A DNA stretch of 64,000 nucleotides from Permianibacter sp. (lineage in GTDB: Bacteria; Pseudomonadota; Gammaproteobacteria; Enterobacterales; Permianibacteraceae): positions 12,498-76,497 of the forward strand of contig JBKBHF010000013.1 of assembly GCA_046297695.1 (NCBI GenBank), in the 5' to 3' direction. Positions 1-31,567 of the stretch are shown here, one piece after another; positions within the stretch are counted from its first letter, which is position 1, and every line of letters begins with the position of its first letter. The translations under genes were made by a program, and so were the position numbers. The notes under the pieces were generated by a model. It did no database searches and was not told where the DNA came from. It was given only the letters and a program-made list of their open reading frames with translations.

Positions 1-357
1 GCCTGGACGGCGGAAGCGCTGAAGCTGACCATGCCGGCCAGTGTGTTTTCGCGTTCGACCGAGTGCCACAACCAGGACAAGGTCAGCATGGGCACCATCG
101 CGGCGCGCGATTGCCTGCGGGTGATCGAGCTGACCGAGCAGGTCGGCGCCGCCATGTTGATGGCGGTGGCGCAAGCCTATGAGCTGCGTGCCAACGCCGG
201 CGAGATTGTCAGCGCCGCGCACGCACCGGCGCTGAGTCAGACCGTCACCGACGTGCGTCGATTCAGCGGTTTCATCAGCGAAGATCGGATGCTGGAAATG
301 GAATTGCGGGCACTGCTGCAGGCAATCCAGCAGCGCCAGTTTGCCCTGTATCACTGA
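1..357 (+). CDS. Aromatic amino acid/histidine ammonia-lyase family protein, C-terminal part (5' end lies outside the window)
   Basis: Frame 1 is open from nt 1 (AWTAEALKLT...). The segment ECHNQDKVSMGTIAARD resembles the conserved QD-x-VSMG region of HAL/PAL/TAL lyases. Stop at 355-357. It sits directly upstream of ape-type genes. Confidence 0.7.
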   Translation, partial: AWTAEALKLTMPASVFSRSTECHNQDKVSMGTIAARDCLRVIELTEQVGAAMLMAVAQAYELRANAGEIVSAAHAPALSQTVTDVRRFSGFISEDRMLEMELRALLQAIQQRQFALYH

Positions 358-376
358 GCGAACCGGAAGCCGCCCC

Positions 377-796
377 GTGAGTAAAGTACTACGCGAAGCC
401 GAAATCGAGTTGGAAATCCCGTTTCATGACTGCGACATGATGTCGGTGGTCTGGCACGGCAATTATCTGCGCTATTTCGAGATTGCCCGCTGCGCGCTGC
501 TGCGCACGTTCAACTACGACTATATGCAGATGCGCGATTCCGGCTTTATCTGGCCGATCATCGATACCCAGATCAAATATGTCGGCTCGGCCCGGTTCGA
601 GCAGCGTATCAAGGTACGCGCGCAGTTGCTCGAGTGGGAGAACCGGCTGAAGATCGAATACCTGATCCGTGATGCCGAAACCGGTGCCCGCATCACCCGC
701 GGCTACACGGTACAGGTCGCCGTTGCGATGGCGACCGGCGAAATGCAGTTGGTGTCACCGCCGGTGCTGGCCGAACGGCTGGGCTTGTCGTCATGA
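377..796 (+). CDS. 4HBT/YbgC-type hotdog thioesterase (ApeK-like)
   Basis: GTG 377 has GGAAG upstream; TTG 341 from the ORF track is an alternative start. IPFHDCDMMSVVWHGNYLRYFE is the typical YbgC/4-hydroxybenzoyl-CoA thioesterase N-terminal signature. The stop overlaps the next start (ATGA at 793). Confidence 0.75.
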   Translation: MSKVLREAEIELEIPFHDCDMMSVVWHGNYLRYFEIARCALLRTFNYDYMQMRDSGFIWPIIDTQIKYVGSARFEQRIKVRAQLLEWENRLKIEYLIRDAETGARITRGYTVQVAVAMATGEMQLVSPPVLAERLGLSS

Positions 797-1413
797 ATCG
801 CAACTCGCTGACTCTGATGTTGAGTCTGCTGCTGTCATGCCCGCTTGGTGTGGCAGAGGCCGGCGAGCTCACTTTGACTCGTCTGACCGAACAATTGGCC
901 ACGCATTTGCAGCAGCGTTCAAGCTTCGTGCAGTTGAAAACCGTCAAAGGACTCAGTCGCCCGTTGCGTTCGACCGGCGAAGTGCTGGTACTGCCTGAGC
1001 AAGGCGTGCTGTATATGGTGCAGAAGCCGCTGGTCGCGCGCTACGGCATTGGTCGCGACAAGATGCTGCTGGAAGAAGCCGGCCGGCAAAAACTGTTGCA
1101 GGCCAACGAGGCGCCGTGGTTGCGCACGCTGGGCCGCTTGCTGCACAGCATGCTGGCCGGTGAACTGGCCGCGCTGGAGCAGGATTTTCATTGCCAGCTC
1201 AGTCCGACCGCGACCGGTTGGCAGTTGTTGCTGACACCACGTCGTGAACCGCTGTCACTGGCGCTGGCGGAAGTGCAGTTGACCGGCGGCGATACCGTGC
1301 AGCAAGTCATCATCCGCGATCGCAATGGCGATCAGACTGAGCTGCAGTTTCAGGCCTTGCCGGCCGCCGCCGTGACAGCGGCCGAGCAGGCGCTGCTGGA
1401 TCTGATCAAGTGA
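793..1413 (+). CDS. LolA-like outer-membrane lipoprotein carrier family protein (ApeL-like)
   Basis: Signal peptide MNRNSLTLMLSLLLSCPLGVAEA. About 200 aa. Translationally coupled on both sides (ATGA 793, GTGA 1410). Its position between thioesterase and MMPL exporter matches APE clusters. Confidence 0.6.
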   Translation: MNRNSLTLMLSLLLSCPLGVAEAGELTLTRLTEQLATHLQQRSSFVQLKTVKGLSRPLRSTGEVLVLPEQGVLYMVQKPLVARYGIGRDKMLLEEAGRQKLLQANEAPWLRTLGRLLHSMLAGELAALEQDFHCQLSPTATGWQLLLTPRREPLSLALAEVQLTGGDTVQQVIIRDRNGDQTELQFQALPAAAVTAAEQALLDLIK

Positions 1414-3758
1414 CGGCGCTGCGCTCGCTGCGGGTTGGGTTGTTCGTACTGCTGCTCACGCTGGCCGGGGCATTTGTCGCGCAGCGGTTGCAGCAGGGGG
1501 ATGCGTTCAGCACCGATCTGCTGGCGTTGCTGCCGGCGACCGAGCGCGACCCGCTGGCCGAACAGGCGGCGCAGCAAGTGCAAACCGCCATCGGTAGCCA
1601 TACCGTTTTTCTGATCAGTCATACCGATCGCGAACGTGCGCGGGCCATCGCCAGCGAGTTCGCCAACCAGCTACGGCAAGCCAAGGTATTCGACCGGGTG
1701 CAGTTCGAGCTGCCGGCAGACGCCCAGCAGCGGCTGATTGAAAACCTGTTGCCGTATCGCAGCGCGCTGTTGTCGAATGCTGATGCCGCGCTGATTGCGG
1801 CCGGCGGCGAAGCGCTGCAGCAGCGCTTGCTACAGGCGCTGTACTCACCGCTCTCCGTTGCCGTACCGGGCGCGGATCCATTCGGCTTCTTTGCCAACAG
1901 CCTGCAGCAGCTCGGTGCGGGCGCCGGTGTCGCGCAAGTGGATGACGGTCTGCTGACCGTTGTCCGCGATGATCGCTTCTATCTGCTGGTCGATGCGGTC
2001 TCAAGCCAATCCGTATTCGATGATCGCTATCAGCGCCAGGCCATCACTGTCATCGAGCACGCCAAGGCAACTGCCATTGCAGCTGGCGCCGAAGTGCTCG
2101 GTACCGGCACGTTACGGTTCGCCGCCCAGGCTCGCGCCGAAGGTGAGCGCGATGTCAGCGTCATCGCCAGCGTCAGCACCATCGGCGTGCTGCTGCTGGT
2201 ATTGCTGGTGTTCCGGCGCGCTGCACCGCTGTTGCTGATGTTTGCCGTGATCGGTGCGTCACTACTCGGTGCCACTGCACTGGCGCTGCTGATCTACGGC
2301 AAGCTGCATTTGCTGACCTATGTTTTCGGCACCACGTTGATCGGTATTGCCGGCGACTACGCGCTGCACTACCTGACCCTGCATGCCAGCAGCCATCACT
2401 GGGATGCGAAAGCGGCGATGCGGCAGTTGTTCAAGCCGTTGACCATCGCGATGCTGACCACCTTCATGGCCTATCTGGCAATTGCGCTGACGCCGTTCAG
2501 CGCCTTCCGGCAGATCGCGCTGTTCTGCATGCTCGGTTTGCTGTGCGGTTATCTGGCCGTGCTGGTGTTGTTGCCGGCGGTGCTGGTCGCGCCGGCCAAA
2601 CAAGCACCCGCCGCGCTGGCCTGGACGGGCGCGCTGCATGAGCGTTTGCTGGCCTGGCGCCGCCAGCGCCGACCGGTCTATCTCTTGCTTCTGATACTGT
2701 TTGCCAGTGCCTTGCCGGGTTGGTGGTGGCTGCGCGCCGATGACGACATTCACTTGCTGCAGAAATCCGATCCCGGTCTGCTGGCGGAACAGCAGCGTAT
2801 CGCCGACATTCTGCAGCAGAATGGCAACAGCCAATTCTTTCTGGTGCGTGGTAGCAATGAAGCCGAATGGCTGGCGCGCGAACAAGCCTTGGTTGCGGCG
2901 CTGCAAGCGGCGCAGGCGCGCGGTGATCTGATCGGTTGGCGGGCGTTGTCCGACGCCGTGCCGCCAGTGAATCAGCAACAACAGCGGATCGCGCTGCTTG
3001 AGTCGGCATTTGCCGATGACGGTAATTTAGCAATTGCCTTACAGGCGCTGGAATTTGCTCCGGATGATATCGCGGCGCTGAAACAACAGACGTTGAGCCA
3101 CGCTGTGCTGACAATCGGTGACTATCTGGCGATGCCGCACAACCAAGCGCAGCGGCTGCAGCGGTTGCCGACGACCGACGGCAGCGTCGTCAGCATTGTC
3201 CTGCTCGACGGTATCAGCCGTCTTGATGCGATGGCAGCACTGAGGCTCGAGGGCGTCAGCTTTGTCGACAAGACCGCGAGCATTTCGGCGCTGTTTCGAT
3301 CGTTCCGGGAACAGGCGACCGGCTATGTCTTGCTGGCTTACGGTGTCACGCTGCTGTGGCTGCTGTGGCAGTGCGGCTGGCATGGTGCGCTGGTGCGCTT
3401 GTTGCCGACCGCGCTGGCAAGTGGTTTGACGCTGGCGCTGCTCGGCTATTTCGGCCAGCCGTTCAATCTGTTCACCGGTATTGCGTTGCTGCTGGTGCTT
3501 GGCATCGGCATTGACTACGCGCTGTTTCTGGCCGAAGGCGAAGGTCATGAGCCGGCCAGTCTGTTGGCGATCCTGTTGTCGGCGTTGACTGCGATACTGG
3601 GCTTTGGCCTGCTGGTCGGCGCCAGTTTGCCGGCGGTCAGTGGTTTTGGTTTGACCGTGCTGATCGGTGTGCTGCTGGCGCTGTTGCTGGCGCCGCTGAC
3701 CTTGGTGCTCATGCACGAAAAGCCGGTGCACGAAAAGCCGGCGCATCAAAACCATTGA
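1410..3758 (+). CDS. MMPL/RND-superfamily membrane exporter (ApeM-like)
   Basis: 782 aa with two blocks of multiple hydrophobic helices (about aa 250-400 and 640-770) separated by soluble loops, the typical MMPL topology. GTG start overlaps the upstream stop. Confidence 0.75.
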   Translation: MTALRSLRVGLFVLLLTLAGAFVAQRLQQGDAFSTDLLALLPATERDPLAEQAAQQVQTAIGSHTVFLISHTDRERARAIASEFANQLRQAKVFDRVQFELPADAQQRLIENLLPYRSALLSNADAALIAAGGEALQQRLLQALYSPLSVAVPGADPFGFFANSLQQLGAGAGVAQVDDGLLTVVRDDRFYLLVDAVSSQSVFDDRYQRQAITVIEHAKATAIAAGAEVLGTGTLRFAAQARAEGERDVSVIASVSTIGVLLLVLLVFRRAAPLLLMFAVIGASLLGATALALLIYGKLHLLTYVFGTTLIGIAGDYALHYLTLHASSHHWDAKAAMRQLFKPLTIAMLTTFMAYLAIALTPFSAFRQIALFCMLGLLCGYLAVLVLLPAVLVAPAKQAPAALAWTGALHERLLAWRRQRRPVYLLLLILFASALPGWWWLRADDDIHLLQKSDPGLLAEQQRIADILQQNGNSQFFLVRGSNEAEWLAREQALVAALQAAQARGDLIGWRALSDAVPPVNQQQQRIALLESAFADDGNLAIALQALEFAPDDIAALKQQTLSHAVLTIGDYLAMPHNQAQRLQRLPTTDGSVVSIVLLDGISRLDAMAALRLEGVSFVDKTASISALFRSFREQATGYVLLAYGVTLLWLLWQCGWHGALVRLLPTALASGLTLALLGYFGQPFNLFTGIALLLVLGIGIDYALFLAEGEGHEPASLLAILLSALTAILGFGLLVGASLPAVSGFGLTVLIGVLLALLLAPLTLVLMHEKPVHEKPAHQNH

Positions 3759-3796
3759 ACGAAAACTGTTGAATGAAAAACGCTGAAGGATAGACC

Positions 3797-4345
3797 GTGA
3801 TTCGTGTCCTGCTGTTGTTGAGCCTGCTGGTGCTGCTGTCAGCCTGTGCCAGCACGCCGTGCGTGCGCTGGGCCGGCAGTGCCCGCTGGTGTGCAGCGCC
3901 GTTGCCGGCCACGCCGCCGTTTGCCCGCAGCGAAGACATCGTCAATGCCGATGCCCGTGGCGAAAAACTGGTGGTGCTGGCAACGACCGAATGGAGTGCC
4001 ACGCAGTTCACCCAAGTGGTGCTGACGCCGTTTGGTCAGCGCCTGTATCGCTTGCAGTACGATGGTCAGCAGGTGGAATTCGATGCCGGCCTGCTGCCGG
4101 TGCCGGTCAAGCCGGAACAATCGCTGCTCGATATCCAGCTGATGCTATGGCCGCTGTCGCTGTTGCAGGCGCAGTTGCCGAGCGGCTGGAGCTTGCAGGA
4201 AGATGCGGGCACCGGCGCCCGCCGGCTGCGCGCCGGTGACGAATTACTGGCCGAAGTGAACCGGCTCAGCGCCGACGAAGTGGAGCTGATTCAGCACCGG
4301 CTCGGCTACACCGTGCGTGTGCAAACGCTGGAGCAGACGCGATGA
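3797..4345 (+). CDS. DUF3261-like lipoprotein (ApeN-like)
   Basis: GTG start. Lipoprotein signal with lipobox (MIRVLLLLSLLVLLSAC). 182 aa. Stop overlaps the next gene's ATG (ATGA 4342). Position after the MMPL gene matches APE clusters. Confidence 0.6.
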   Translation: MIRVLLLLSLLVLLSACASTPCVRWAGSARWCAAPLPATPPFARSEDIVNADARGEKLVVLATTEWSATQFTQVVLTPFGQRLYRLQYDGQQVEFDAGLLPVPVKPEQSLLDIQLMLWPLSLLQAQLPSGWSLQEDAGTGARRLRAGDELLAEVNRLSADEVELIQHRLGYTVRVQTLEQTR

Positions 4346-5547
4346 CCGACCGCATCAATACGGCGAAATATTACCTTTCCGCTCCGGGTCTGATCTGCCC
4401 GCTCGGCGACAACGCGCCGACCGTTGCCGAGGCATTGTTCAATGGCAGGCCGGGGCTGGTGGCTGCAACTGGTTGGCTGCCGGAGCGCAGCGCCTGGCTC
4501 GGCAAGGTCGATACGGCATTGCCAGCCATACCGAGCTCACTGAGCGAGTTTTCCTGCCGCAACAACCAGCTGTTGCTGGCGGCGTTGCAACAACTGCAGC
4601 CGACACTCGATGCGCTGTTGCAGCGCTATCCGCGCGAACGCATCGGGGTCGTGATTGGCTCCAGCACCTCCGGCATCGATGAAGGCGAACGCGCGATTGC
4701 CTTTTATGAGCAAAGCGTTGCGCAAGCGCAAACCGGTGCGTTTCCGCCGGCATTCGATTACCGCCAGCAGGAAATCGGTGCGCCGGCCTTGTTCGTTGCC
4801 CGTCAGCTCGGTGTTACCGGCCCGACCTACACGGTTTCGACTGCCTGCACCTCGAGCACGCGGGCGGTGCTGTCGGCACGCTGGTTGCTGCAGGCGGAGC
4901 TCTGCGATGCCGTGATCGTCGGCGGCGCCGATTCGCTGTGCCGGCTGACGGTGCAGGGCTTCGCCGCGCTGGAATCGTTTTCGCAAGCGCAGTGCCGGCC
5001 GTTCAGTGCCGATCGCGATGGCATCAATATCGGTGAAGGTGCGGCGCTGTTCGTGCTGAGCCGCGAGCCGCTCGATGCCAGGCCGGTGCGTCTGCTTGGA
5101 GGTGCGGCGTCAGCGGATGCTTATCATATTTCCGCGCCGCAACCGGATGGCCTCGGTGCCGAGCGGGCGCTGCGCGGCGCGCTGGCCGATGCCGGTGTCG
5201 ATGCCGCGGCGATCGATTACCTGAATCTGCATGGCACCGCGACGCCGAAGAATGACGAGATGGAAGCCAAGGCGGTCCATCGGGTGTTTGGCGCGGCGCT
5301 GCCATGCAGCAGCACCAAATCGTTGACCGGTCATCTGCTCGGAGCAGCCGGGGCGGTGGAGCTGGCGTTCTGCTATCTGGCACTGCAACACGGGCGTTTG
5401 CCGGTACAATCGCCGCCTCGGGTGGCGGATGCCGCCTTGCCCGCGCTGAATCTGGTCACGGCACCGAGGCAGGTCAGCCTCAACACCGTGATGACGGCGA
5501 ACTATGCTTTCGGTGGCAGCAACGTGGCGCTGGTGCTGGGCCGTTGA
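4342..5547 (+). CDS. Beta-ketoacyl-ACP synthase (ApeO-like KS)
   Basis: Thiolase-fold KS with an apparent Cys-His-His triad: TVSTACTSS, NLHGTATPKND, SLTGHLLGAAG. C-terminal NYAFGGSNVALVL. Confidence 0.88.
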   Translation: MTDRINTAKYYLSAPGLICPLGDNAPTVAEALFNGRPGLVAATGWLPERSAWLGKVDTALPAIPSSLSEFSCRNNQLLLAALQQLQPTLDALLQRYPRERIGVVIGSSTSGIDEGERAIAFYEQSVAQAQTGAFPPAFDYRQQEIGAPALFVARQLGVTGPTYTVSTACTSSTRAVLSARWLLQAELCDAVIVGGADSLCRLTVQGFAALESFSQAQCRPFSADRDGINIGEGAALFVLSREPLDARPVRLLGGAASADAYHISAPQPDGLGAERALRGALADAGVDAAAIDYLNLHGTATPKNDEMEAKAVHRVFGAALPCSSTKSLTGHLLGAAGAVELAFCYLALQHGRLPVQSPPRVADAALPALNLVTAPRQVSLNTVMTANYAFGGSNVALVLGR

Positions 5548-5578
5548 AACCGGCAAACGAAATTTCAGGAGAGTGCAG

Positions 5579-6046
5579 GTGGCGCTGGCGTTTCAACAAT
5601 GGTCGATGGCCGAGCTGTTGCCGCACGCCGGCGACATGATTCTGCTCGACGCCGTGCTGAGCTGTGATGACGAGCAAATCGTCGTCACCGCGACGCCGCA
5701 TGCCGGCACCATTCTGGTCGATGACAAGGGCGTGTTGCCGGCCTGGACTGGCATCGAATACATGGCGCAGGCGATTGCCTGTTTCGCCGGTGTGCACGAG
5801 CGCGTGCACGGCCGGCCGCCGAAGGTCGGTTTCCTGCTCGGCACCCGCAGTTACGACAGCAAGGTGGCGGCGTTTGCGTTGAACCAGACGCTGCGGATCA
5901 GCGCAACCAAACAGTATCAGGAGGCCAACGGCCTCGGCGCGTTCCAGTGCCGCATCGAAAACGAAACCGGTATGCTGGTCGAAGCCAGCATCAACGTGTT
6001 TGAGCCGCCAGAGCTGGAAAAATATCTGGCCGGCGAGCAAAACTGA
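5579..6046 (+). CDS. Hotdog-fold 3-hydroxyacyl-ACP dehydratase (ApeP-like)
   Basis: GTG 5579 lies 7 nt after AGGAGA; ATG 5606 is an alternative. About 155 aa, ...LLPHAGDMILLD...GIEYMAQAIA... resembles FabA/FabZ-like hotdog dehydratases found between KS and KR in APE clusters. Confidence 0.65.
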   Translation: MALAFQQWSMAELLPHAGDMILLDAVLSCDDEQIVVTATPHAGTILVDDKGVLPAWTGIEYMAQAIACFAGVHERVHGRPPKVGFLLGTRSYDSKVAAFALNQTLRISATKQYQEANGLGAFQCRIENETGMLVEASINVFEPPELEKYLAGEQN

Positions 6047-6089
6047 CAGCAGCAAAATTTCACTTCATAAAACCCCGCAAGAGAAGCTA

Positions 6090-6824
6090 ATGACCAATCC
6101 CTCGCGCCGTATTCTGGTTACCGGCTCCAGCCGCGGCATCGGTCGCGCCATTGCCTTGCAACTGGCGCGCGACGGTTTTCACGTTTTGGTGCATGGCCGC
6201 GCCGACGGCGACGCGCTGCGTGCCGTCGCCAGCGAAATCGCCGCTGCCGGCGGCAGTGCCAGCGCCTTGCCGTTTGATATCAGTGATCGCGCCGCAACAC
6301 GCGCGGCCTTGGACCATGAACTGACCAGCAACGGCGCGCTGTACGGGGTCGTCTGCAATGCCGGCATCGCCCGCGATAACGCCTTTCCGGCGATGACCGA
6401 AGAGGATTGGGACGGCGTCATCCACACCAACCTCGACAGCTTCTATAACGTCGTGCAGCCGCTGGTGATGCCGATGGTGCGCGCCAAGAAGGGCGGCCGC
6501 ATCGTTACGCTGTCGTCGGTGTCCGGCATTGCCGGCAATCGCGGCCAAGTCAATTACAGTGCCGCCAAGGCCGGCATCATTGGTGCGACCAAGGCACTGG
6601 CGTTGGAATTGGCTTCGCGCAACATCACCGTCAATTGCGTTGCGCCGGGTTTGATCGACACCGAAATGCTGCACGGCGTCGAAGTCGACGAAGCGCTGAA
6701 ACTGGTGCCGGCCAAACGGCTCGGCAAACCGGAAGAAATCGCCGCCGTCGTGGCGTTCCTGTGCAGCGACAACGCTGCCTATGTCACCCGGCAAGTGATC
6801 GCCGTCAACGGAGGCATGGTATGA
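6090..6824 (+). CDS. 3-oxoacyl-ACP reductase, SDR family (FabG/ApeQ-like)
   Basis: ATG 6090. ILVTGSSRGIGRAIA (TGxxxGIG Rossmann motif), NAGI, and the catalytic S...YSAAK motif. Stop overlaps the next ATG (6821). Confidence 0.92.
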   Translation: MTNPSRRILVTGSSRGIGRAIALQLARDGFHVLVHGRADGDALRAVASEIAAAGGSASALPFDISDRAATRAALDHELTSNGALYGVVCNAGIARDNAFPAMTEEDWDGVIHTNLDSFYNVVQPLVMPMVRAKKGGRIVTLSSVSGIAGNRGQVNYSAAKAGIIGATKALALELASRNITVNCVAPGLIDTEMLHGVEVDEALKLVPAKRLGKPEEIAAVVAFLCSDNAAYVTRQVIAVNGGMV

Positions 6825-24125: not shown

Positions 24126-24869
24126 ATGGCTCATGCTGACGAAATCGCCGCCTTTTTTTCCCAGCTCGCCAATCCGGGCTATGTCGAGGCGCTGTTCGAC
24201 CCGATCCCGGATCTGGTGTTCGCGCTGAAGACCCGCGACGGCAAATACCTGTCGGTCAACGAAGCCTGGGTCAAGCGCTGCGGCCTCAAGCACAAGACCG
24301 AAGCGCTTGGCCGCACCGCTCGCGATCTGTTCCCGTCGCACATGGCGGCGCGTTACGAAGCGCAGGACCAGAAGCTGCTGCGTACCGGCATGCCGATCGT
24401 CGACAGCCTCGATCTGATTCTGTACGCCAACGGCAGCGCCGGCTGGTGTCTGTCGAACAAGGTCGCGCTGAAAGACGGCAAAGGCAAAATCATCGGCATT
24501 GCGACGCTGTCGAAGGATCTGGTTGACCCGAGCCGGGCTGGTTTGATCGATGAAGCATTTGCCGCCGCTGTCGATTTCATCCAGGCCCACTACGACGAAG
24601 GTCTGCGCGTCGAGGCGCTGGCGAAAATGGCCAAGCTGTCGGTGCCGCAGTTCGAACGGCGGATGAAGCGCGTCTTTCATATTTCCAGCGCCCAGTTCAT
24701 CACCAAAACCCGCATCGATGCCGCGCTGCAGGCGCTCATTGAAACCGATACGCCACTTGGCCAGATTGCCGTCGATTGCGGTTGGTACGATCACGCGGCG
24801 TTTTCGCGTCAGTTCAAACAGGTGACCGGGCTGACCCCGAGCGAATTCCGCTCGCTGTCGGTGCGCTGA
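24126..24869 (+). CDS. AraC-family transcriptional regulator with N-terminal PAS-like sensor domain
   Basis: MAHADEIAAFF...PDLVFALKTRDGKYLSVNEAWVKRCG (PAS-like) followed by a C-terminal AraC HTH (...IAVDCGWYDHAAFSRQFKQVTGLTPSEFR). Divergent from putA and only 14 nt upstream of the next gene. Confidence 0.85.
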   Translation: MAHADEIAAFFSQLANPGYVEALFDPIPDLVFALKTRDGKYLSVNEAWVKRCGLKHKTEALGRTARDLFPSHMAARYEAQDQKLLRTGMPIVDSLDLILYANGSAGWCLSNKVALKDGKGKIIGIATLSKDLVDPSRAGLIDEAFAAAVDFIQAHYDEGLRVEALAKMAKLSVPQFERRMKRVFHISSAQFITKTRIDAALQALIETDTPLGQIAVDCGWYDHAAFSRQFKQVTGLTPSEFRSLSVR

Positions 24870-24883
24870 GCTGCGAGTCGGTA

Positions 24884-25849
24884 ATGCAAGCGTCGCCGCG
24901 CATTCTGATCATCACGCCGCCCGGTGCCGCGGCGCGCACCGGCAACCGCGCGACCGCAGTGCGCTGGCGCGCGCAGCTGCTTGCGCTCGGTTGCCGCGTG
25001 CGCATTGCCGATCAGTTCATCGGCCGCTGTCCGGATCTGACCATTGCCCTGCATGCCCGGCGCAGTGCTGCCGCGGTGCAGGACGTCAAGGCCAAATGTC
25101 CGACGCCAGTGGTCGTGATGCTGACCGGTACCGACGTCTACAAGGATCTGCCGCATGATGCCGATGCCAAGACTGCGCTGCAGCTCGCGGACCGCGTGAT
25201 CGCACTGCAGCCCGATATGGCGCAGCGGGTACCGGACAATGTCCGGGAAAAGGTCCGGGTTATCGTGCAGGCGGCCACCGTTGCACCGATTGTCCGGCCG
25301 CGTCGTAACAAGCTCGATGTCCTGGTGTCCGGTCATCTGCGCGAGGAAAAAGATCCGTTCCGCGCGGTGCAGGCGCTGATGCAGTTGCCGTCGCTGCCGA
25401 TCCGGCTCAGCCATATCGGCGACGAACTCGGCGCCGGCTTTCGGCAACAGGCGCTAGACTGGATGCAGCGCGAACCGCGTTATCGCTACTACGGTGGCTG
25501 GTCGCCGGCCCGGGCCCGGCGTCGGCTCGCCAGTGCCGATGTGCTGATCAATGCCTCACGCATCGAAGGTTGTCCGGCGGTGGTGTGCGAAGCCTTGTCG
25601 GCCGGCACGCCGGTGCTGGCGTCGCGCATACCGGCACACGAAGGTTTGCTCGGTGTGGATTACCCGGGGCTGTTTCCGGTCGGCGATAGCGCTGCCCTGG
25701 CGATGCTCTTGCGCCGTATAAGCGAAGATGCCGAATTTCTGCCTCAGCTGCGCGCTGCCATGCAGCCGCGCCGCGCGCTGGTTTCACCGTTAACCGAGCA
25801 GGCGGCGATCAAACGCCTGCTGCAAGAATTGGAGTCATTGCCACGATGA
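24884..25849 (+). CDS. senB: GT-B glycosyltransferase, probable selenosugar synthase SenB-like
   Basis: 321 aa. N-terminal ILIITPPGAAARTGNRATAVRW; C-terminal GT1/GT4 motif SRIEGCPAVVCEALSAGTPVLAS. The stop overlaps the selD start (ATGA 25846). The SenB assignment comes from context plus memory of the family, not from a search. Confidence 0.6.
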   Translation: MQASPRILIITPPGAAARTGNRATAVRWRAQLLALGCRVRIADQFIGRCPDLTIALHARRSAAAVQDVKAKCPTPVVVMLTGTDVYKDLPHDADAKTALQLADRVIALQPDMAQRVPDNVREKVRVIVQAATVAPIVRPRRNKLDVLVSGHLREEKDPFRAVQALMQLPSLPIRLSHIGDELGAGFRQQALDWMQREPRYRYYGGWSPARARRRLASADVLINASRIEGCPAVVCEALSAGTPVLASRIPAHEGLLGVDYPGLFPVGDSAALAMLLRRISEDAEFLPQLRAAMQPRRALVSPLTEQAAIKRLLQELESLPR

Positions 25850-26934
25850 ACACGTCCGTGACCAACCCTCCGACCACAACCGACGATGAGCCGATCCGCT
25901 TGACCCAATACGCCCACGGTGGCGGCTGCGGCTGCAAGATTGCGCCGTCGCTACTGCAGGAAATTCTCGGCGATTCGATCGTCAAGCAGGTGGTGCCGCA
26001 ATTGCTGGTCGGGGTCGAGAACAGCGACGATGCCGCGGTCTATCAGCTGAATGACACGCAGGCGATTGTCGCCACCACCGATTTCTTCACGCCGATCGTC
26101 GATGACCCGTACGACTTTGGCCGCATCGCCGCGACCAATGCGTTGTCCGATATTTACGCGATGGGTGGCAAGCCGCTGTTTGCGCTCGCCATCGTCGGTA
26201 TGCCGATCAACAAATTAAAACCGGCGACCATTCGCGAGATCCTGCGCGGTGGCGAAGATGTCTGCAAAGCGGCCGGCATACCGATCGCCGGTGGCCATTC
26301 GATTGATACGCCGGAGCCGATTTATGGTCTGGTCGGCATTGGTGTCGTGCATCCGAAACAGCTGAAGCGCAATGACAGTGCCGAAGTGGGCGATGTACTG
26401 ATCCTCGGCAAACCGCTCGGGGTTGGTGTGCTGTCGGCGGCGATCAAGCAGGACAAGCTTGGCGCCGATGGCTATGCCGCGATGGTGGCCAACACCACCA
26501 AGCTGAATACGCCGGGCGTCGAGCTGGCACAAATCGACGGCGTCCATGCGCTGACCGACGTCACCGGGTTTGGTCTGGCCGGTCATGCTTGGGAAATGGC
26601 GCGCGGCAGCAAGGCCGAGATCGTCTTGCGGTTCGATGCGCTGCCGATTCTGCCGGGCGTGCCGGCACTCGCCGAACAAGGTTTTGTCACCGGCGCCTCG
26701 ACCCGCAACTGGGCCGGCTATGGCGAGCACATTCAACTGTTCGCGGGCTGTGCGCCGTGGCAGCAAGCGCTGCTGACCGATCCACAAACCAGCGGCGGTC
26801 TGTTGGTCGCCTGCACGCCGGCCAGCGTAGAAGCGGTGCTGGCCAAGTTCCGTCAGCACGGTTTCGCCGAGGCCGCGGTGATCGGCAAGGTGGTCGCGGG
26901 CGCGCCGTGTGTGCGGGTGCTGGCCAACGGCTGA
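25846..26934 (+). CDS. selD: Selenide, water dikinase (selenophosphate synthetase), Cys-type
   Basis: LTQYAHGGGCGCKIAPSLLQEIL matches the SelD active-site loop (Cys rather than Sec), followed by AIR-synthase-like PurM folds (DDAAV...TTDFFTPIVDDPY). Confidence 0.93.
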   Translation: MNTSVTNPPTTTDDEPIRLTQYAHGGGCGCKIAPSLLQEILGDSIVKQVVPQLLVGVENSDDAAVYQLNDTQAIVATTDFFTPIVDDPYDFGRIAATNALSDIYAMGGKPLFALAIVGMPINKLKPATIREILRGGEDVCKAAGIPIAGGHSIDTPEPIYGLVGIGVVHPKQLKRNDSAEVGDVLILGKPLGVGVLSAAIKQDKLGADGYAAMVANTTKLNTPGVELAQIDGVHALTDVTGFGLAGHAWEMARGSKAEIVLRFDALPILPGVPALAEQGFVTGASTRNWAGYGEHIQLFAGCAPWQQALLTDPQTSGGLLVACTPASVEAVLAKFRQHGFAEAAVIGKVVAGAPCVRVLANG

Positions 26935-26987
26935 AGGCGGTCGTGATACAGCCCGGGAAATGTTTCGGAGCAAAGGAGTTGGGGAAA

Positions 26988-27830
26988 ATGAAAAGTGTCG
27001 TGATGGGCCTGATGCTGGTGTTGGCGTCGCTGACTGCTGTCGCGGTCGAACCGTTGAAAGTCAGCGCCATTCCGGATGAAGCACCGACTGAATTGATTCG
27101 CAAATTCCAGCCGCTCGGCGCGTACCTTGAAAAAGAAATCGGCCGGCCGGTGGTGTTCACGCCGGTCAATGATTATGCCGCTGTGGTCGAGGCACTCGCT
27201 GCCGGCAAAATCGATCTGGCCTGGTTCGGTGGTTTCACGTTTGTCCAGGCCCGTCTGCGCACCGGCAATGCCATACCGATTGTGCAACGCGCGGAAGACG
27301 AGCAGTTCACCAGCAAATTCATTGCCAGCACCAGCAGCGGCATCAACAAGATGGCCGACATGCGCGGCAAGACGTTTGCGTTCGGCAGCCCGAGCTCGAC
27401 CTCCGGTCACCTGATGCCGCGTCATTTCCTGAACCAGAACGGCATCGATCCGGATATCGATTTCAAGAATCTCGCATTCTCCGGCGCCCATGATGCCACC
27501 GTCGCCTGGGTCGCCAGCGGCAAGGTCGACGCCGGCGCGCTCAATGCTTCGGTCTGGGACAAGCTGGTCGAGCAGGGCAAGGTCGATCAAAGCAAGGTGA
27601 AAGTGATCTGGACCACGCCACCGTACTACGACTACAACTGGACCGTGCGTGGTGATCTCGACAAGGATCTGGTGCGCAAGTTGACCGCGGCATTCCTGAA
27701 ACTCGACGCCAACAATCCCGAGCATGCCGAACTCATGAAGCTGCAGCGGGCCAGCAAGTACGTCGCGACCAAGCCGGAAAATTATGCCGGCATTGAAGCG
27801 GCGGCGCGCAAAGCCGGCCTGCTGAAATAA
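26988..27830 (+). CDS. PhnD-like periplasmic substrate-binding protein of an ABC importer (putative selenate/selenium-oxyanion binding protein)
   Basis: Signal peptide MKSVVMGLMLVLASLTAVA. ...VSAIPDEAPTELIRKFQPL..FTPVNDYAAVVEALAAGKIDLAWFGG..SSTSGHLMPR is the PhnD-family pattern. Located next to selD. Confidence 0.8.
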   Translation: MKSVVMGLMLVLASLTAVAVEPLKVSAIPDEAPTELIRKFQPLGAYLEKEIGRPVVFTPVNDYAAVVEALAAGKIDLAWFGGFTFVQARLRTGNAIPIVQRAEDEQFTSKFIASTSSGINKMADMRGKTFAFGSPSSTSGHLMPRHFLNQNGIDPDIDFKNLAFSGAHDATVAWVASGKVDAGALNASVWDKLVEQGKVDQSKVKVIWTTPPYYDYNWTVRGDLDKDLVRKLTAAFLKLDANNPEHAELMKLQRASKYVATKPENYAGIEAAARKAGLLK

Positions 27831-27845
27831 GCGGAGTAGCTGAAG

Positions 27846-28676
27846 TTGTCATCGACTGCCCCGTTGGCGCTTGAGCTGGCGCAGCTGAGTTTGCGGCTCG
27901 GTCGTGGCGAGGCAGCACGCCATGTCTTGCATCCGCTGTCGCTGCGGGTCGAGCGCGGCGAGCAGATCGCCATCATCGGGCCGAGCGGTGCCGGCAAAAC
28001 CTCGTTGTTGCGGGTTGCCGCCACCGCGCTGCGCGGCGACGGTGCGTTGCGGGTGCTTGGTGATGATCCGTGGCGCCTGGCAAGCGGCAAACGGCAGGCA
28101 TTGCGGCGGACGATTGGACTCATCCATCAAGCGCCGCCGTTGCCGGGTTCGCAACGCGTGATCACCGCCGTACTCGCCGGTCGACTCGGCCATTGGTCGC
28201 TGTCTCACAGTCTGTGGTCGCTGTGGCGGCCGGCCGATCCGCAAGGCGCGTTTCGCTGCCTGCAACAACTCGAACTTGGTGATCGGCTCTACGATCGTTG
28301 CGGCGATTTGTCCGGCGGTCAGTTGCAGCGCGTCGGCATTGCCCGGGTGCTCTATCAGCAGCCGGCGTTGGTGCTCGCGGATGAACCGGTATCGGCGCTG
28401 GATCCGGTGTTGGCGGCGCGCGCACTTGACGTGCTGCAAGCCGATTGCCGCGCGCGTGGCGCGACGCTGATCGCCAGCTTGCATGCGGTTGATCTGGCGC
28501 TGCAGCGCTTTCCGCGTGTGATTGGTTTGCGTGACGGGCGCATCGTGTTCGATGGCGCGCCGGAAGCACTCAGTGCCGAACGCTTGCAGCAGTTGTATGC
28601 CGGCGATGCCAGTGGCGTTGTGACCATGCCCGCCGCGTTGCCGGCCTCGGCGGTCGCGGCGAGTTGTGCGCCATGA
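27846..28676 (+). CDS. ABC transporter ATP-binding protein (PhnC-like)
   Basis: TTG start. Walker A GPSGAGKTS, signature LSGGQLQRV, Walker B LVLADEPVSALD. Confidence 0.9.
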   Translation: MSSTAPLALELAQLSLRLGRGEAARHVLHPLSLRVERGEQIAIIGPSGAGKTSLLRVAATALRGDGALRVLGDDPWRLASGKRQALRRTIGLIHQAPPLPGSQRVITAVLAGRLGHWSLSHSLWSLWRPADPQGAFRCLQQLELGDRLYDRCGDLSGGQLQRVGIARVLYQQPALVLADEPVSALDPVLAARALDVLQADCRARGATLIASLHAVDLALQRFPRVIGLRDGRIVFDGAPEALSAERLQQLYAGDASGVVTMPAALPASAVAASCAP

Positions 28677-29503
28677 CGGCAACGTCCGCCTTGCCTGACA
28701 AGGCGCCGGCCCGACGACTGTTCGCCGTCACGCTGGCGCTGTTGCTGCTGTGGCCACTTTTTGCCGCGACGGATTTTTCCCTGACCGGCTTGTTTCAACC
28801 CGACAGCTGGCAAGCGATGGCGGGCTTCCTGCGTGATTTCGCCACCCCAGCCTGGCAGCCGGAGTTTCTGCAGCTGACCGTTATCGCGATGGCGCAAACA
28901 CTGGCCATCGCCACGCTTGGCATTGCCGGTGCGCTGATCCTTGCCTTGCCGCTCGCGGTACTGACTACGCGTACGCTGTCCATCTCCCTGCTCGGGCCGG
29001 CACCACGCTGTGACTACTGCCGGGCGGCACGGGCGGTTGTGCGGGCCGTGGCGCTGTTGTTGCGCAGTTTGCCGGAGCTGATCTGGGCGCTGCTGTTTGT
29101 CCGGCTGTTCGGGCTTGGACCGGCGGCGGCAATCGCCGCCATCGCGGTCAGCTACGGCGGCATGCTGGCAAAAGTCTATGCCGACATCAGCGAGAGTGGC
29201 GCGCTCGAGCCAGCGCGTGCCTTGTTGATCGCTGGCGCGGGCCGTCGGCAAACCCTGTTCTATGGTGTCTGGCCGTCGGTGCGCGATGAACTGCTGTCAT
29301 ACACCGTCTATCGCTGGGAATGTGCGCTGCGCGCCAGTGTCATCATGGGCTTTGTCGGCGCCGGTGGTTTGGGCCAGCAACTGGAACTCAGTCTGCGCAT
29401 GTTGAACGGCCATGAGGCGGCGACGCTGCTGCTGGCATTCATGCTGCTGGTGCTGGCGGCCGATGCGCTCAGCGCGCTGCTGCGCTGGAGTGTGCGGCCA
29501 TGA
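28673..29503 (+). CDS. ABC transporter permease (PhnE-like), copy 1
   Basis: ATG 28673 overlaps the ATPase stop (ATGA). Multi-TM protein with an EAA-like loop region (...YADISESGALEPARALLIAGAGRRQTLFYGVWP...). Confidence 0.85.
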   Translation: MTATSALPDKAPARRLFAVTLALLLLWPLFAATDFSLTGLFQPDSWQAMAGFLRDFATPAWQPEFLQLTVIAMAQTLAIATLGIAGALILALPLAVLTTRTLSISLLGPAPRCDYCRAARAVVRAVALLLRSLPELIWALLFVRLFGLGPAAAIAAIAVSYGGMLAKVYADISESGALEPARALLIAGAGRRQTLFYGVWPSVRDELLSYTVYRWECALRASVIMGFVGAGGLGQQLELSLRMLNGHEAATLLLAFMLLVLAADALSALLRWSVRP

Positions 29504-30288
29504 ACGTCGTGACGCTTCCATCACCGCCGCGCCGGCCGTTGCTGCGTTGGCTGCTGGCGTTGGTTTTGATTGGCAGTTTGCTCGTGGTGAGCGTGCTGAC
29601 GCTCGACTTCGCCAGCTTCGATGCCAGTTGGCGCGGGCTCGGCGAATTTGTCGCGCCGCTGCTTGCGCCCAATCTGGAGCCACGCTTCTTGCTGGTGGTG
29701 GCACGTGCCAGCGCCGAAACGCTGGCGATGGCGTTGGTGTCGACGTTTTTCGCCGCACTGCTGGCCGCGCTGCTGGCGGTGCTCGCGCAAACGGCGCTGC
29801 GCTGGCCGCTCAAGCTGCTGTTCAATGCCTTGCGGGCAGTGCCGGAATTGTTGTTCGCCAGTCTGTTGGTGCTCGCGGTCGGGCTGGGTGCCACGGCCGG
29901 CATTCTGGCGCTGACCTTGCATACCGCCGGCGTGCTGGCGCGGCTATTCAGCGAAACCTTGGAGAATGCCGATCGCCGCGCCGACGAGGCGCTGCGGCTC
30001 GCCGGTGCCGGCCGCTTGCAGGCATTCTGCTACGGTCGTCTGCCGATCATCACGCCGCAATGGCTGGCTTACAGTCTGTATCGTAGCGAAATGAACCTGC
30101 GTGCCGCCACCGTGCTCGGCGTGGTCGGTGCCGGCGGACTCGGACAACAACTGCATGTCGCGCTCAGCGTGTTCCGCTACGACAAGGTCAGCACGCTGTT
30201 GCTGGCAACCTTCCTGCTGATTTGGCTGACCGAAAGCCTCAGCCGCTGGCTGCGCCGCGACCGGTTCAGCAACGCCCAGATCGATTGA
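29500..30288 (+). CDS. ABC transporter permease (PhnE-like), copy 2
   Basis: ATGA overlap with the previous permease. ...ETLENADRRADEALRLAGAGRLQAFCYGRLP... EAA-like loop; multi-TM. Confidence 0.85.
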   Translation: MNVVTLPSPPRRPLLRWLLALVLIGSLLVVSVLTLDFASFDASWRGLGEFVAPLLAPNLEPRFLLVVARASAETLAMALVSTFFAALLAALLAVLAQTALRWPLKLLFNALRAVPELLFASLLVLAVGLGATAGILALTLHTAGVLARLFSETLENADRRADEALRLAGAGRLQAFCYGRLPIITPQWLAYSLYRSEMNLRAATVLGVVGAGGLGQQLHVALSVFRYDKVSTLLLATFLLIWLTESLSRWLRRDRFSNAQID

Positions 30289-30328
30289 GCAACAGCCGCC
30301 GTCAGCGGCCGTTGCTGTCCGGTTGCTG

Positions 30329-31021
30329 TCAGCTGCGTTTGACGGTCAAGGTGCCGCGCTTGGCGCCGTCGCGCATCACATCCAGCGTTTTGCTTTCGCC
30401 GGCTTTCAGCTCAAAGGTGAGCGGCTGATAGTAGGGTATCAGCAGCGTCAAGGTGGTCTTGTCTGCCGGTACTTGCCGGAGCCGGATATCAGCTTGCTTG
30501 CTAATCCGCTCTTCAAATTCGCTGCCACCGTAATCGTCCATGCCGCCTTTTTCTTCCCAGCGTTTGAACGGTAACACCTGGTAATGGCTGGCGCGGATAT
30601 GGGCGATATAGGTTTCCATGTGGCTGTGGATAGCGCAGCCAACTCGAACAATGCTGTCTTCGGCCCAGCTCAACTTCAGATTGACGGTTTGCCCCGGCGG
30701 CACCAGACCAACGTCGAACCGGGTGCCGGTGCTGTAGCTGTTGGCGTAGATATTGTGGCGAGCCGTATCGGAATTGTGGAAGGCAATGGTGGCGTCCTGG
30801 GAGCCGACCGACAGGTACTGGCCAAACTGCCGATTCTTCTGATCGACGCTGACCTCATTGATGCTGGCGCTGGCATCGCGCACATACAGCACCGCGGCGG
30901 CCGGCGGCGTGGTTTCAAATGTCAGGGTGCCGATGATGAGATCATCGGCCGATGCGGCGGCGCTGGCCATGGCAAGCATCAGCAGGACGACGCGCTGGGC
31001 GAACGAACGTAGGTGGGACAT
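30329..31021 (-). CDS. Secreted cupredoxin-like protein (distant paralog of 46660-47295)
   Basis: ATG 31021 (MSHLRSFAQRVVLLMLAMASAAASA signal peptide). FHNSDTARHNIYANS ... VRVGCAIHSHMETYI gives a His...Cys-x2-His-x2-Met arrangement reminiscent of type-1 copper sites. The longer ORF-track version (to 31618) is antisense to the BLUF gene. Confidence 0.6.
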   Translation of the reverse strand: MSHLRSFAQRVVLLMLAMASAAASADDLIIGTLTFETTPPAAAVLYVRDASASINEVSVDQKNRQFGQYLSVGSQDATIAFHNSDTARHNIYANSYSTGTRFDVGLVPPGQTVNLKLSWAEDSIVRVGCAIHSHMETYIAHIRASHYQVLPFKRWEEKGGMDDYGGSEFEERISKQADIRLRQVPADKTTLTLLIPYYQPLTFELKAGESKTLDVMRDGAKRGTLTVKRS

Positions 31022-31123
31022 CGGGTGACTCCTGTCTTGGATGAGTGATGAGCGGCAGGGGCGGTAATCTGGCGCCGGCGCCCTTCCGTATCGACAGAGC
31101 CCGACACCAGAGAACGAAACGCC

Positions 31124-31567
31124 ATGTATCGCCTGATTTATGCCAGTACCGCCAGTGAAAGTTTTCGGCTCAGCGACGTGCACAGTATCGTCGCCGCCTC
31201 CGAACGCAACAACCGGCCGCGCCACCTGACCGGCATGCTGGTCTTCAGCAGCCGCTACTTTCTGCAATGGCTGGAAGGCCCGCGCGAAGCGGTCAATGAG
31301 CGCTACCTGCGCATTTGCCAGGACATGCGTCATCACAGCCCGGTGATGCTGGCTTACGAGCCCATCATCGAGCGCCAGTTTACCGACTGGGCCATGGGCT
31401 ATCTGGGCGAAGGGGTGTTGAACCGGCAAGTGTTGATGCGCTACTTTGCCGACGGCCAGTTCCAGCCATACCAGCTGTCCGGTGCCGCGGCCGCGGTGCT
31501 GATGCCGCAGTTGGCCGAACTCGCTTACGCCATCGAGCAGCGCCGGGCCAGTCCGACGCCAGTCTGA
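31124..31567 (+). CDS. BLUF-domain blue-light FAD photoreceptor (short, single-domain)
   Basis: [10 protein letters not shown]...[43 protein letters not shown] contains the conserved BLUF Tyr (YRLIY), Gln (FLQWLEG) and the W/M region. Confidence 0.88.

Follow-up and report, generated by a model that had tools for sequence, protein, structure and literature searches.

Enzymes of the EgtB, SenA and OvsA type are sulfoxide/selenoxide synthases that use non-heme iron (NHISSs). One such enzyme is encoded with SenB and SenC in the senA-senB-senC system of Variovorax paradoxus described by Kayrouz et al. (2022; 10.1101/2022.04.13.486033), whose survey recognized sen clusters by an egtB-like gene, a TIGR04348 gene, and selD within 5 kb; both partners lay that close for only 827 of 2,353 TIGR04348 genes. 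In Marinobacter, senBC can be chromosomally separated from its NHISS (PMC11030361). A further point of reference is PhnD1 of picocyanobacteria, which binds phosphite at roughly micromolar affinity and, more weakly, phosphate and then methylphosphonate (PMC10284923). Here we analyze a 64-kb stretch of Permianibacter sp. DNA (assembly GCA_046297695.1, contig JBKBHF010000013.1; hereafter, the window) in which six consecutive genes encode a SenB-type selenosugar synthase, a selenophosphate synthetase (SelD/SenC), and an ATP-binding cassette (ABC) importer made up of a substrate-binding protein (SBP), an ATPase, and two permeases.

We consider it likely that Permianibacter has a split selenoneine pathway and that this senB-selD-SBP-ATPase-permease-permease operon is the half that supplies selenium. 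The locus is real and correctly read, and it most likely encodes already-known chemistry and no new kind of selenium chemistry. A preliminary description of the window had placed the six genes and assigned their families as coordinates and profile scores now confirm (Table 1). Its title, which announced that no C-Se bond-forming enzyme was in sight, was inaccurate, since SenB itself forms a C-Se bond (PMC11237966). Literature searches covering Permianibacter, selenosugar clusters, and TIGR04553 brought up no work on this locus.

A probable selenium-supply operon and its proposed partner genes

Profile score and catalytic residues identify the predicted glycosyltransferase as a SenB. The preliminary description had named a score below the SenB model cutoff as grounds for abandoning this assignment; the protein passes TIGR04348 (Table 1), by a small margin, and the sister copy P0424 scores 319.1 bits. 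Its alignment with the V. paradoxus SenB structures 8FBX and 8JJQ covers the full length (E ~5e-52), with conservation of N20, T23, H58, T83, T85, D86, Q131, R155, K158, E231, and E239. This set takes in every residue found to be important by mutagenesis of SenB, namely K158, the sugar triad N20/T23/E231, T83/T85 of the selenophosphate pocket, D86, H58, Q131, and E239 (PMC10891094). The sugar-donor motif EGGAHV is not kept: the window SenB and nine of nine clade members carry EGCPAV, and EGGANV is found in 108 of 120 other SenB homologs. In EGCPAV-type proteins E231 is retained and Ala takes the H/N235 position, the one in contact with the sugar C4' hydroxyl. This clade-specific change beside the C4' contact could signify that both the sugar donor and the selenosugar differ. 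The Permianibacter SenB clade is isolated, with 76-94% identity inside it and at most 57% outside; in relatives, residues 228-233 read EGAPAV (P0010) and EGGPAV (L091).

SelD carries the motif LTQYAHGGGCGCKIAP and is of the Cys type, HGGGCGCK (GGGCGCK). Exact NCBI matches, all from a Permianibacter sp. metagenome-assembled genome (MAG), were found for SelD (MFN4290556.1), the SBP (MFN4290557.1), and the nearby PutA (MFN4290553.1). The six genes form one transcription unit, as had been proposed from the sequence. They lie on one strand; the selD start overlaps the senB stop by 4 nt (ATGA), gaps of 53 nt and 15 nt separate selD from the SBP gene and the SBP gene from the ATPase gene (which starts with TTG), and ATGA overlaps recur at both the ATPase/permease 1 and permease 1/permease 2 junctions. 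Promoter and terminator scanning detected nothing above chance within the unit, terminator-like sites included.

No NHISS was found near this unit. A Pfam scan of large open reading frames (ORFs) gave no DinB_2 or FGE-sulfatase match, and a tblastn search of the window with a bona fide SenA (from L009; 522 bits on the SenA model NF041186, cutoff 420) returned nothing at E<=1e-3. The earlier statement that no EgtB/OvoA-like enzyme is encoded in or next to the unit thus holds for the whole 64 kb. The ~10 kb beyond the left window edge contain an aryl-polyene-like lipid cluster and no NHISS. With no NHISS within 5 kb, the locus falls outside the sen clusters counted by Kayrouz et al.

Partner genes were found in sister genomes. 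The order trmH-rsmF-putA-regulator-senB-selD-SBP-ATPase-permease-permease-hypothetical-BLUF-carAB recurs in GCA_041914645.1 (L002), GCA_049324755.1 (L095), a third MAG (HEX49... proteins), and the metagenome contigs L003-L006. The L095 locus, on contig JBMOMZ010000059.1, shares 91-93% nucleotide identity with the window, and protein identities are 89-98%. Another contig of the same MAG (JBMOMZ010000056.1, L094) encodes a SenA-like NHISS (P0300 = MFZ5843828.1) whose gene stands in a divergent pair with that for EgtD, the methyltransferase that forms hercynine (MFZ5843829.1; TIGR03438 327 bits, cutoff 290.9); neither senB nor selD lies near this pair. L094 has a GC content of 62.3% and tetranucleotide correlations of 0.97-0.98 with the window and L095, compared with 0.73-0.88 for unrelated loci, and mis-binning of the NHISS contig is unlikely because its composition matches Permianibacter. 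Same-clade NHISSs are also present in Permianibacter sp. as HEX4909498.1, which shares its accession series with the HEX49... copy of the senB-selD locus, and in the isolate P. aggregans (WP_133593516.1), where the gene lies on a 4.27-Mb contig.

The NHISSs of this clade score 328-358 bits on the SenA model and 191-223 on EgtB. Compared with V. paradoxus SenA (PDB 8RYZ), P0300 keeps the H71/H167/H171 triad, the catalytic Y363, and the hercynine contacts N395/F396, residue roles established in PMC11237966. A search with the SelD of a relative led us to a further MAG (GCA_041914905.1, L091) in which both halves are fused in one cluster, senA<>senB-selD-egtD-SBP-ATPase-permease-permease. Its NHISS (P0286, 378 aa), divergently upstream of senB, has just a handful of close relatives, P0300 among them, and the proteins of the cluster are 78% (SelD), 71% (SBP), and 45-47% (SenB) identical to those of the window. 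The order senB-selD-...-SBP-ATPase-permease-permease is that of the window; the cluster differs in having its own senA, in the insertion of egtD after selD, and in belonging to another organism with a GC content of 52.5% (61% for the window). Together, the SenA-type residues, the adjacent EgtD, and the fused L091 cluster suggest that the Permianibacter NHISS makes selenoneine and not ovoselenol or ergothioneine. The preliminary description had named an ordinary split selenoneine pathway as the arrangement that would overturn its own interpretation, and this is what close relatives display (L094/L095); in L091, from another organism, the genes are physically linked.

That interpretation, in which the strain has no NHISS partner and the selenosugar is an end product or feeds an uncharacterised acceptor, therefore appears unlikely. 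It draws on the absence of an NHISS from the window and the adjoining ~10 kb, on our finding no NHISS with the accession series of the window MAG, and on the accumulation of SeGlcNAc in an ovsA knockout, which makes a free selenosugar chemically viable (PMC11030361). But the SenA-like gene occurs in two sister MAGs that carry this locus, as well as in P. aggregans, and the window MAG is fragmentary (a 79.7-kb contig), such that absence is not readable from it; moreover, the Logan member P0415, which clusters at 90% with the sister-MAG NHISS, may be the strain's own copy.

Also in favor of that interpretation, loci with senB and no NHISS do exist elsewhere. A scan of GTDB genomes with a SenB alignment yielded 80 SenB loci among the matches listed (39-47% identity, no Permianibacter among them), whose gene content we scored within the fetched flanks. 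NHISS genes were present in 57 of these and selD in 20, and 23 had no NHISS, comprising three senB-selD pairs (L048, L063, and L064) and 20 loci with senB alone, mostly from Thiobacillus, Sulfuricella, and Hydrogenophilales. Another 40 paired senA and senB without selD. Because just 17 of the 80 hold all three genes, splitting of sen genes is normal. A side observation concerns the Thiobacillus, Sulfuricella, and Hydrogenophilales loci, in which a gene for a SpoU/RlmB-like methyltransferase abuts senB (e.g., L020, L036, L043, L067, and L080), while senA, and in most cases selD as well, is absent within 10 kb (the 23 listed loci without NHISS span L013-L080); in other betaproteobacteria, senA lies between the methyltransferase gene and senB.

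In the split selenoneine pathway we propose, the PhnD1-type importer would take up a small selenium oxyanion. Cellular thiols reduce such an oxyanion to selenide, from which SelD would make selenophosphate, as its family membership indicates. SenB, judging by its family and catalytic residues, would then move selenium onto a UDP-sugar to give a 1-seleno-sugar. Finally, the divergent SenA-like selenoxide synthase would use this selenosugar and hercynine supplied by EgtD to form selenoneine, with the genes for this last step at a second chromosomal locus, as observed in sister genomes and expected for the window genome. It follows for annotation that, where a senB-selD cassette lacks an EgtB-like neighbor, the entire genome should be checked before new chemistry is claimed. 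The pathway would also extend selenoneine potential to Permianibacter, through divergent SenA-like and SenB enzymes that NCBIfam cutoffs miss or just catch.

The importer, its ligand, and the role of SelD

A second profile check suggested in the preliminary description, of the SBP against the TIGR04553 "putative selenate ABC transporter" model, gave a score well above cutoff (Table 1). The best PDB matches of the SBP are PhnD1 of Synechococcus MITS9220 (7S6G, 45% identity) and of Prochlorococcus (5LQ5, 38%). Because these characterised proteins also pass the TIGR04553 cutoff of 250, with 338 and 303 bits, membership of a family so named is no proof of a selenium ligand; a "putative selenate" family that includes characterised phosphite/phosphate binders is an annotation problem in its own right. 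The earlier claim that this importer has never been characterised biochemically is for the same reason not wholly correct. All 11 ligand-site residues of PhnD1 (D11, Y44, T65, S123-S126, H156, N174, D203, and Y204) are identical in the window SBP and also in nearly all sen-linked homologs. The PhnCDE equivalog cutoffs are missed by the SBP (PhnD, 195.8 < 261.1), the ATPase, and permease 1, and passed by permease 2 alone (Table 1). The main text of the PhnD1 paper makes no mention of selenium, and selenium oxyanions appear not to have been among the ligands tested there (PMC10284923).

The SBP is thus a predicted receptor for a small XO3/XO4 oxyanion, and we infer that this is selenite or selenate. 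Genomic context favors selenium: the SBP gene shares an operon with selD and senB, the same arrangement occurs within the complete L091 cluster, and a TIGR04553-type SBP was encoded in seven loci among the GTDB matches listed, seven of seven of which also had senA and senB. Because the pocket prefers phosphite and selenite shares its trigonal XO3 shape, selenite would be at least as plausible as selenate. A bolder combination, in which the PhnD1-type system is a dedicated selenite importer that goes with bulk selenometabolite synthesis, marked by senB, and not with SelD itself, and the EGCPAV motif marks a different sugar donor, is a tentative possibility that we hold with some doubt. Were the system dedicated to selenite, the "selenate" in the family name would be wrong, and the puzzling phosphite preference of picocyanobacterial PhnD1 would reflect a pocket that also fits selenium oxyanions.

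A variant of the locus in the isolate Permianibacter sp. IMCC34836 (GCA_013179735.1, L007) bears on whether the importer belongs with senB or with selD. The same site there reads putA-regulator-selD-hypothetical-carAB (selD at L007 7867-8913, the site being equivalent to window 24869-31300), with no senB, importer, or BLUF gene; selD is intact and followed by a terminator hairpin. SelD is just 75% identical between this isolate and the window, compared with 96.6% for PutA and 95.5% for CarA, which suggests allelic replacement or changed constraint. No NHISS of the Permianibacter clade could be assigned to IMCC34836 among our NHISS matches, which is weak negative evidence. The importer thus appears to travel with senB and not with selD, and a second client for SelD, present or past, is probable in Permianibacter. 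Comparing this isolate with its full-operon relatives offers a natural way to see what the importer and SenB contribute. Separately, another MAG (GCA_041913605.1), which resembles Permianibacter in composition (tetranucleotide r 0.96), holds at L093 10001-11068 a stand-alone selD, 70% identical to that of the window; its neighborhood is unrelated, and neither senB nor an importer or NHISS gene lies nearby.

The IMCC34836 arrangement also speaks for a different account of the operon, in which the ABC system is a phosphite/phosphate importer of the PhnD1 type and a fortuitous neighbor, SelD mainly serves a conventional role in 2-selenouridine or selenocysteine formation, and SenB is an add-on. 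Since selD persists in IMCC34836 without senB, SelD seems to act independently of SenB there, and the shared cutoff and ligand-site residues of PhnD1 also fit this account. It is nonetheless very unlikely, in our estimation: the importer is gained or lost with senB and not with selD, it accompanies senA and senB in each of the seven listed loci, it keeps its gene order inside the complete sen cluster of L091, the genes overlap translationally in one unit, and Pfam scans of window ORFs revealed no ptxD or phosphonate catabolic genes nearby. That the module instead supplies ovoselenol (ovs) synthesis, its ovsA and ovsM partners lying elsewhere as they do in Marinobacter vinifirmus, would suit an aquatic gammaproteobacterium, a group with ovs clusters and separated senBC (PMC11030361), but we reject this as highly improbable given that the sister-genome NHISS is paired with EgtD and not an OvsM-type N-pi methyltransferase and keeps the SenA-type hercynine motif N395/F396.

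Several observations weigh against a split selenoneine pathway with a selenium importer. With a score of 335, the NHISS clade does not reach the SenA equivalog cutoff of 420, its NCBI name is just "SUMF1/EgtB/PvdO family," and an NHISS-EgtD pair alone could in principle make ergothioneine. SenA-like and egtD genes are seen in sister genomes and are predicted for the window's own MAG, whose accession series has no NCBI member in the NHISS clusters and whose indexing is visibly partial; the key co-occurrence of the locus with the NHISS-EgtD pair comes from MAG bins. As IMCC34836 keeps selD alone, SelD may also serve another selenium trait. Finally, with identical first-shell residues, sequence cannot separate a selenium from a phosphorus ligand for the SBP.

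Gene neighborhood

The unit is flanked upstream by putA and a PAS-AraC family regulator gene and downstream by genes for a secreted hypothetical protein and a BLUF protein, followed by carAB. This agrees with the regulator, cupredoxin-like, and BLUF genes noted in the preliminary description, and Pfam family calls for the six operon genes agree with the NCBIfam assignments. All unlabelled coordinates in this text are positions in the window.

Table 1. Genes of the Permianibacter selenium locus and its immediate flanks
Feature	Position	Strand	Evidence or context
PAS-AraC family regulator	24126-24869	+	Pfam PAS_4 + HTH_18/HTH_AraC
senB, selenosugar synthase (Se-glycosyltransferase, GT-B/GT4)	24884-25849	+	TIGR04348 322.5 bits, cutoff 300
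selD/senC, Cys-type selenophosphate synthetase	25846-26934	+	NF002098 530.9 bits, cutoff 299; TIGR00476 436.9 bits
Periplasmic SBP, PhnD1/TIGR04553 type	26988-27830	+	TIGR04553 384.1 bits, cutoff 250
ABC transporter ATPase, PhnC-like, sub-cutoff	27846-28676	+	TIGR02315 199.5 bits, cutoff 266.1; Pfam ABC_tran
ABC permease 1, PhnE-like, sub-cutoff	28673-29503	+	TIGR01097 186.5 bits, cutoff 216.7; BPD_transp_1
ABC permease 2, PhnE-like	29500-30288	+	TIGR01097 221 bits, cutoff 216.7 (just passes); BPD_transp_1
Secreted hypothetical, cupredoxin-like, 230 aa	30329-31021	-	No Pfam/NCBIfam match
BLUF gene	31124-31567		Downstream of secreted hypothetical gene

The regulator gene is divergent from putA, ends 14 nt before senB, and is found at the identical place in all syntenic loci, the selD-only one of IMCC34836 among them. 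It is probably co-transcribed with the selenium genes, and it may have a role in selenium regulation. The gap from regulator to next gene is 14-20 nt, that gene being senB in the window and selD in IMCC34836 (regulator at L007 8934-9677); the selenium genes may be reached by read-through from a regulator gene resembling a proline-utilisation activator.

The SBP bears a Sec-type signal peptide. The secreted 230-aa protein has a cupredoxin-like H...C-x2-H-x2-M pattern and is conserved yet fast-evolving (65-80% identity) in all Permianibacter loci, the selD-only locus included. The small gene for a BLUF blue-light sensor lies downstream in all loci with senB and the importer whose contig reaches that far (among them L002, L003, and L095) and is missing at the IMCC34836 site; in L095, the hypothetical gene and BLUF are separated by an S8 peptidase gene plus one further ORF. 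We considered both neighbors as acceptor enzymes and rejected them, the first for having no family matches and occurring also in the selD-only locus, and the second because BLUF is a light-sensor domain.

Elsewhere, the Pfam scan of large ORFs revealed housekeeping genes, with rph, yicC, spoT, trmH, rsmF, putA, carAB, ftsH, folP, glmM, and the nuo operon among the window genes, together with a lipid/aryl-polyene-like cluster. The latter, of aryl-polyene/flexirubin-like type, occupies the left window end (1-6824, continuing in L010) and encodes an aromatic ammonia-lyase, acyl carrier proteins, an AMP-ligase, ketosynthases, ApeI/ApeP-like dehydratases, and a ketoreductase; it also holds LolA-like and MMPL genes. 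Rfam and tRNA scans of the window identified only a tRNA-Leu, with no selC and no riboswitch.

Comparison with described systems

The V. paradoxus senA-senB-senC system shares with Permianibacter its SenB and SelD/SenC homologs in overlapping frames and, counting the sister genomes, a SenA-like enzyme with EgtD; a "putative selenate transporter" gene also lies near a subset of such sen clusters (10.1101/2022.04.13.486033). The two differ in that Permianibacter senA and egtD occupy a separate chromosomal locus, the SenA-like partner scores under the NCBIfam SenA cutoff, and the window operon carries a full four-gene ABC importer downstream of selD. The window SenB is itself only ~40% identical to that of V. 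paradoxus and has EGCPAV in place of EGGAHV.

In the physical separation of a gammaproteobacterial senBC cassette from its NHISS partner, the locus resembles the ovs system of Marinobacter vinifirmus (PMC11030361). The partners differ: in Permianibacter they are SenA-like and EgtD, by the hercynine route, in place of OvsA and OvsM. The importer, for its part, matches picocyanobacterial PhnD1/PhnDCE (7S6G and 5LQ5; PMC10284923 and PMC5700983) in TIGR04553 membership, in 11 of 11 ligand-site residues, and in ABC architecture. Unlike those systems, the window SBP, known here from its sequence, lies in a context of selenium metabolism and not of phosphorus.

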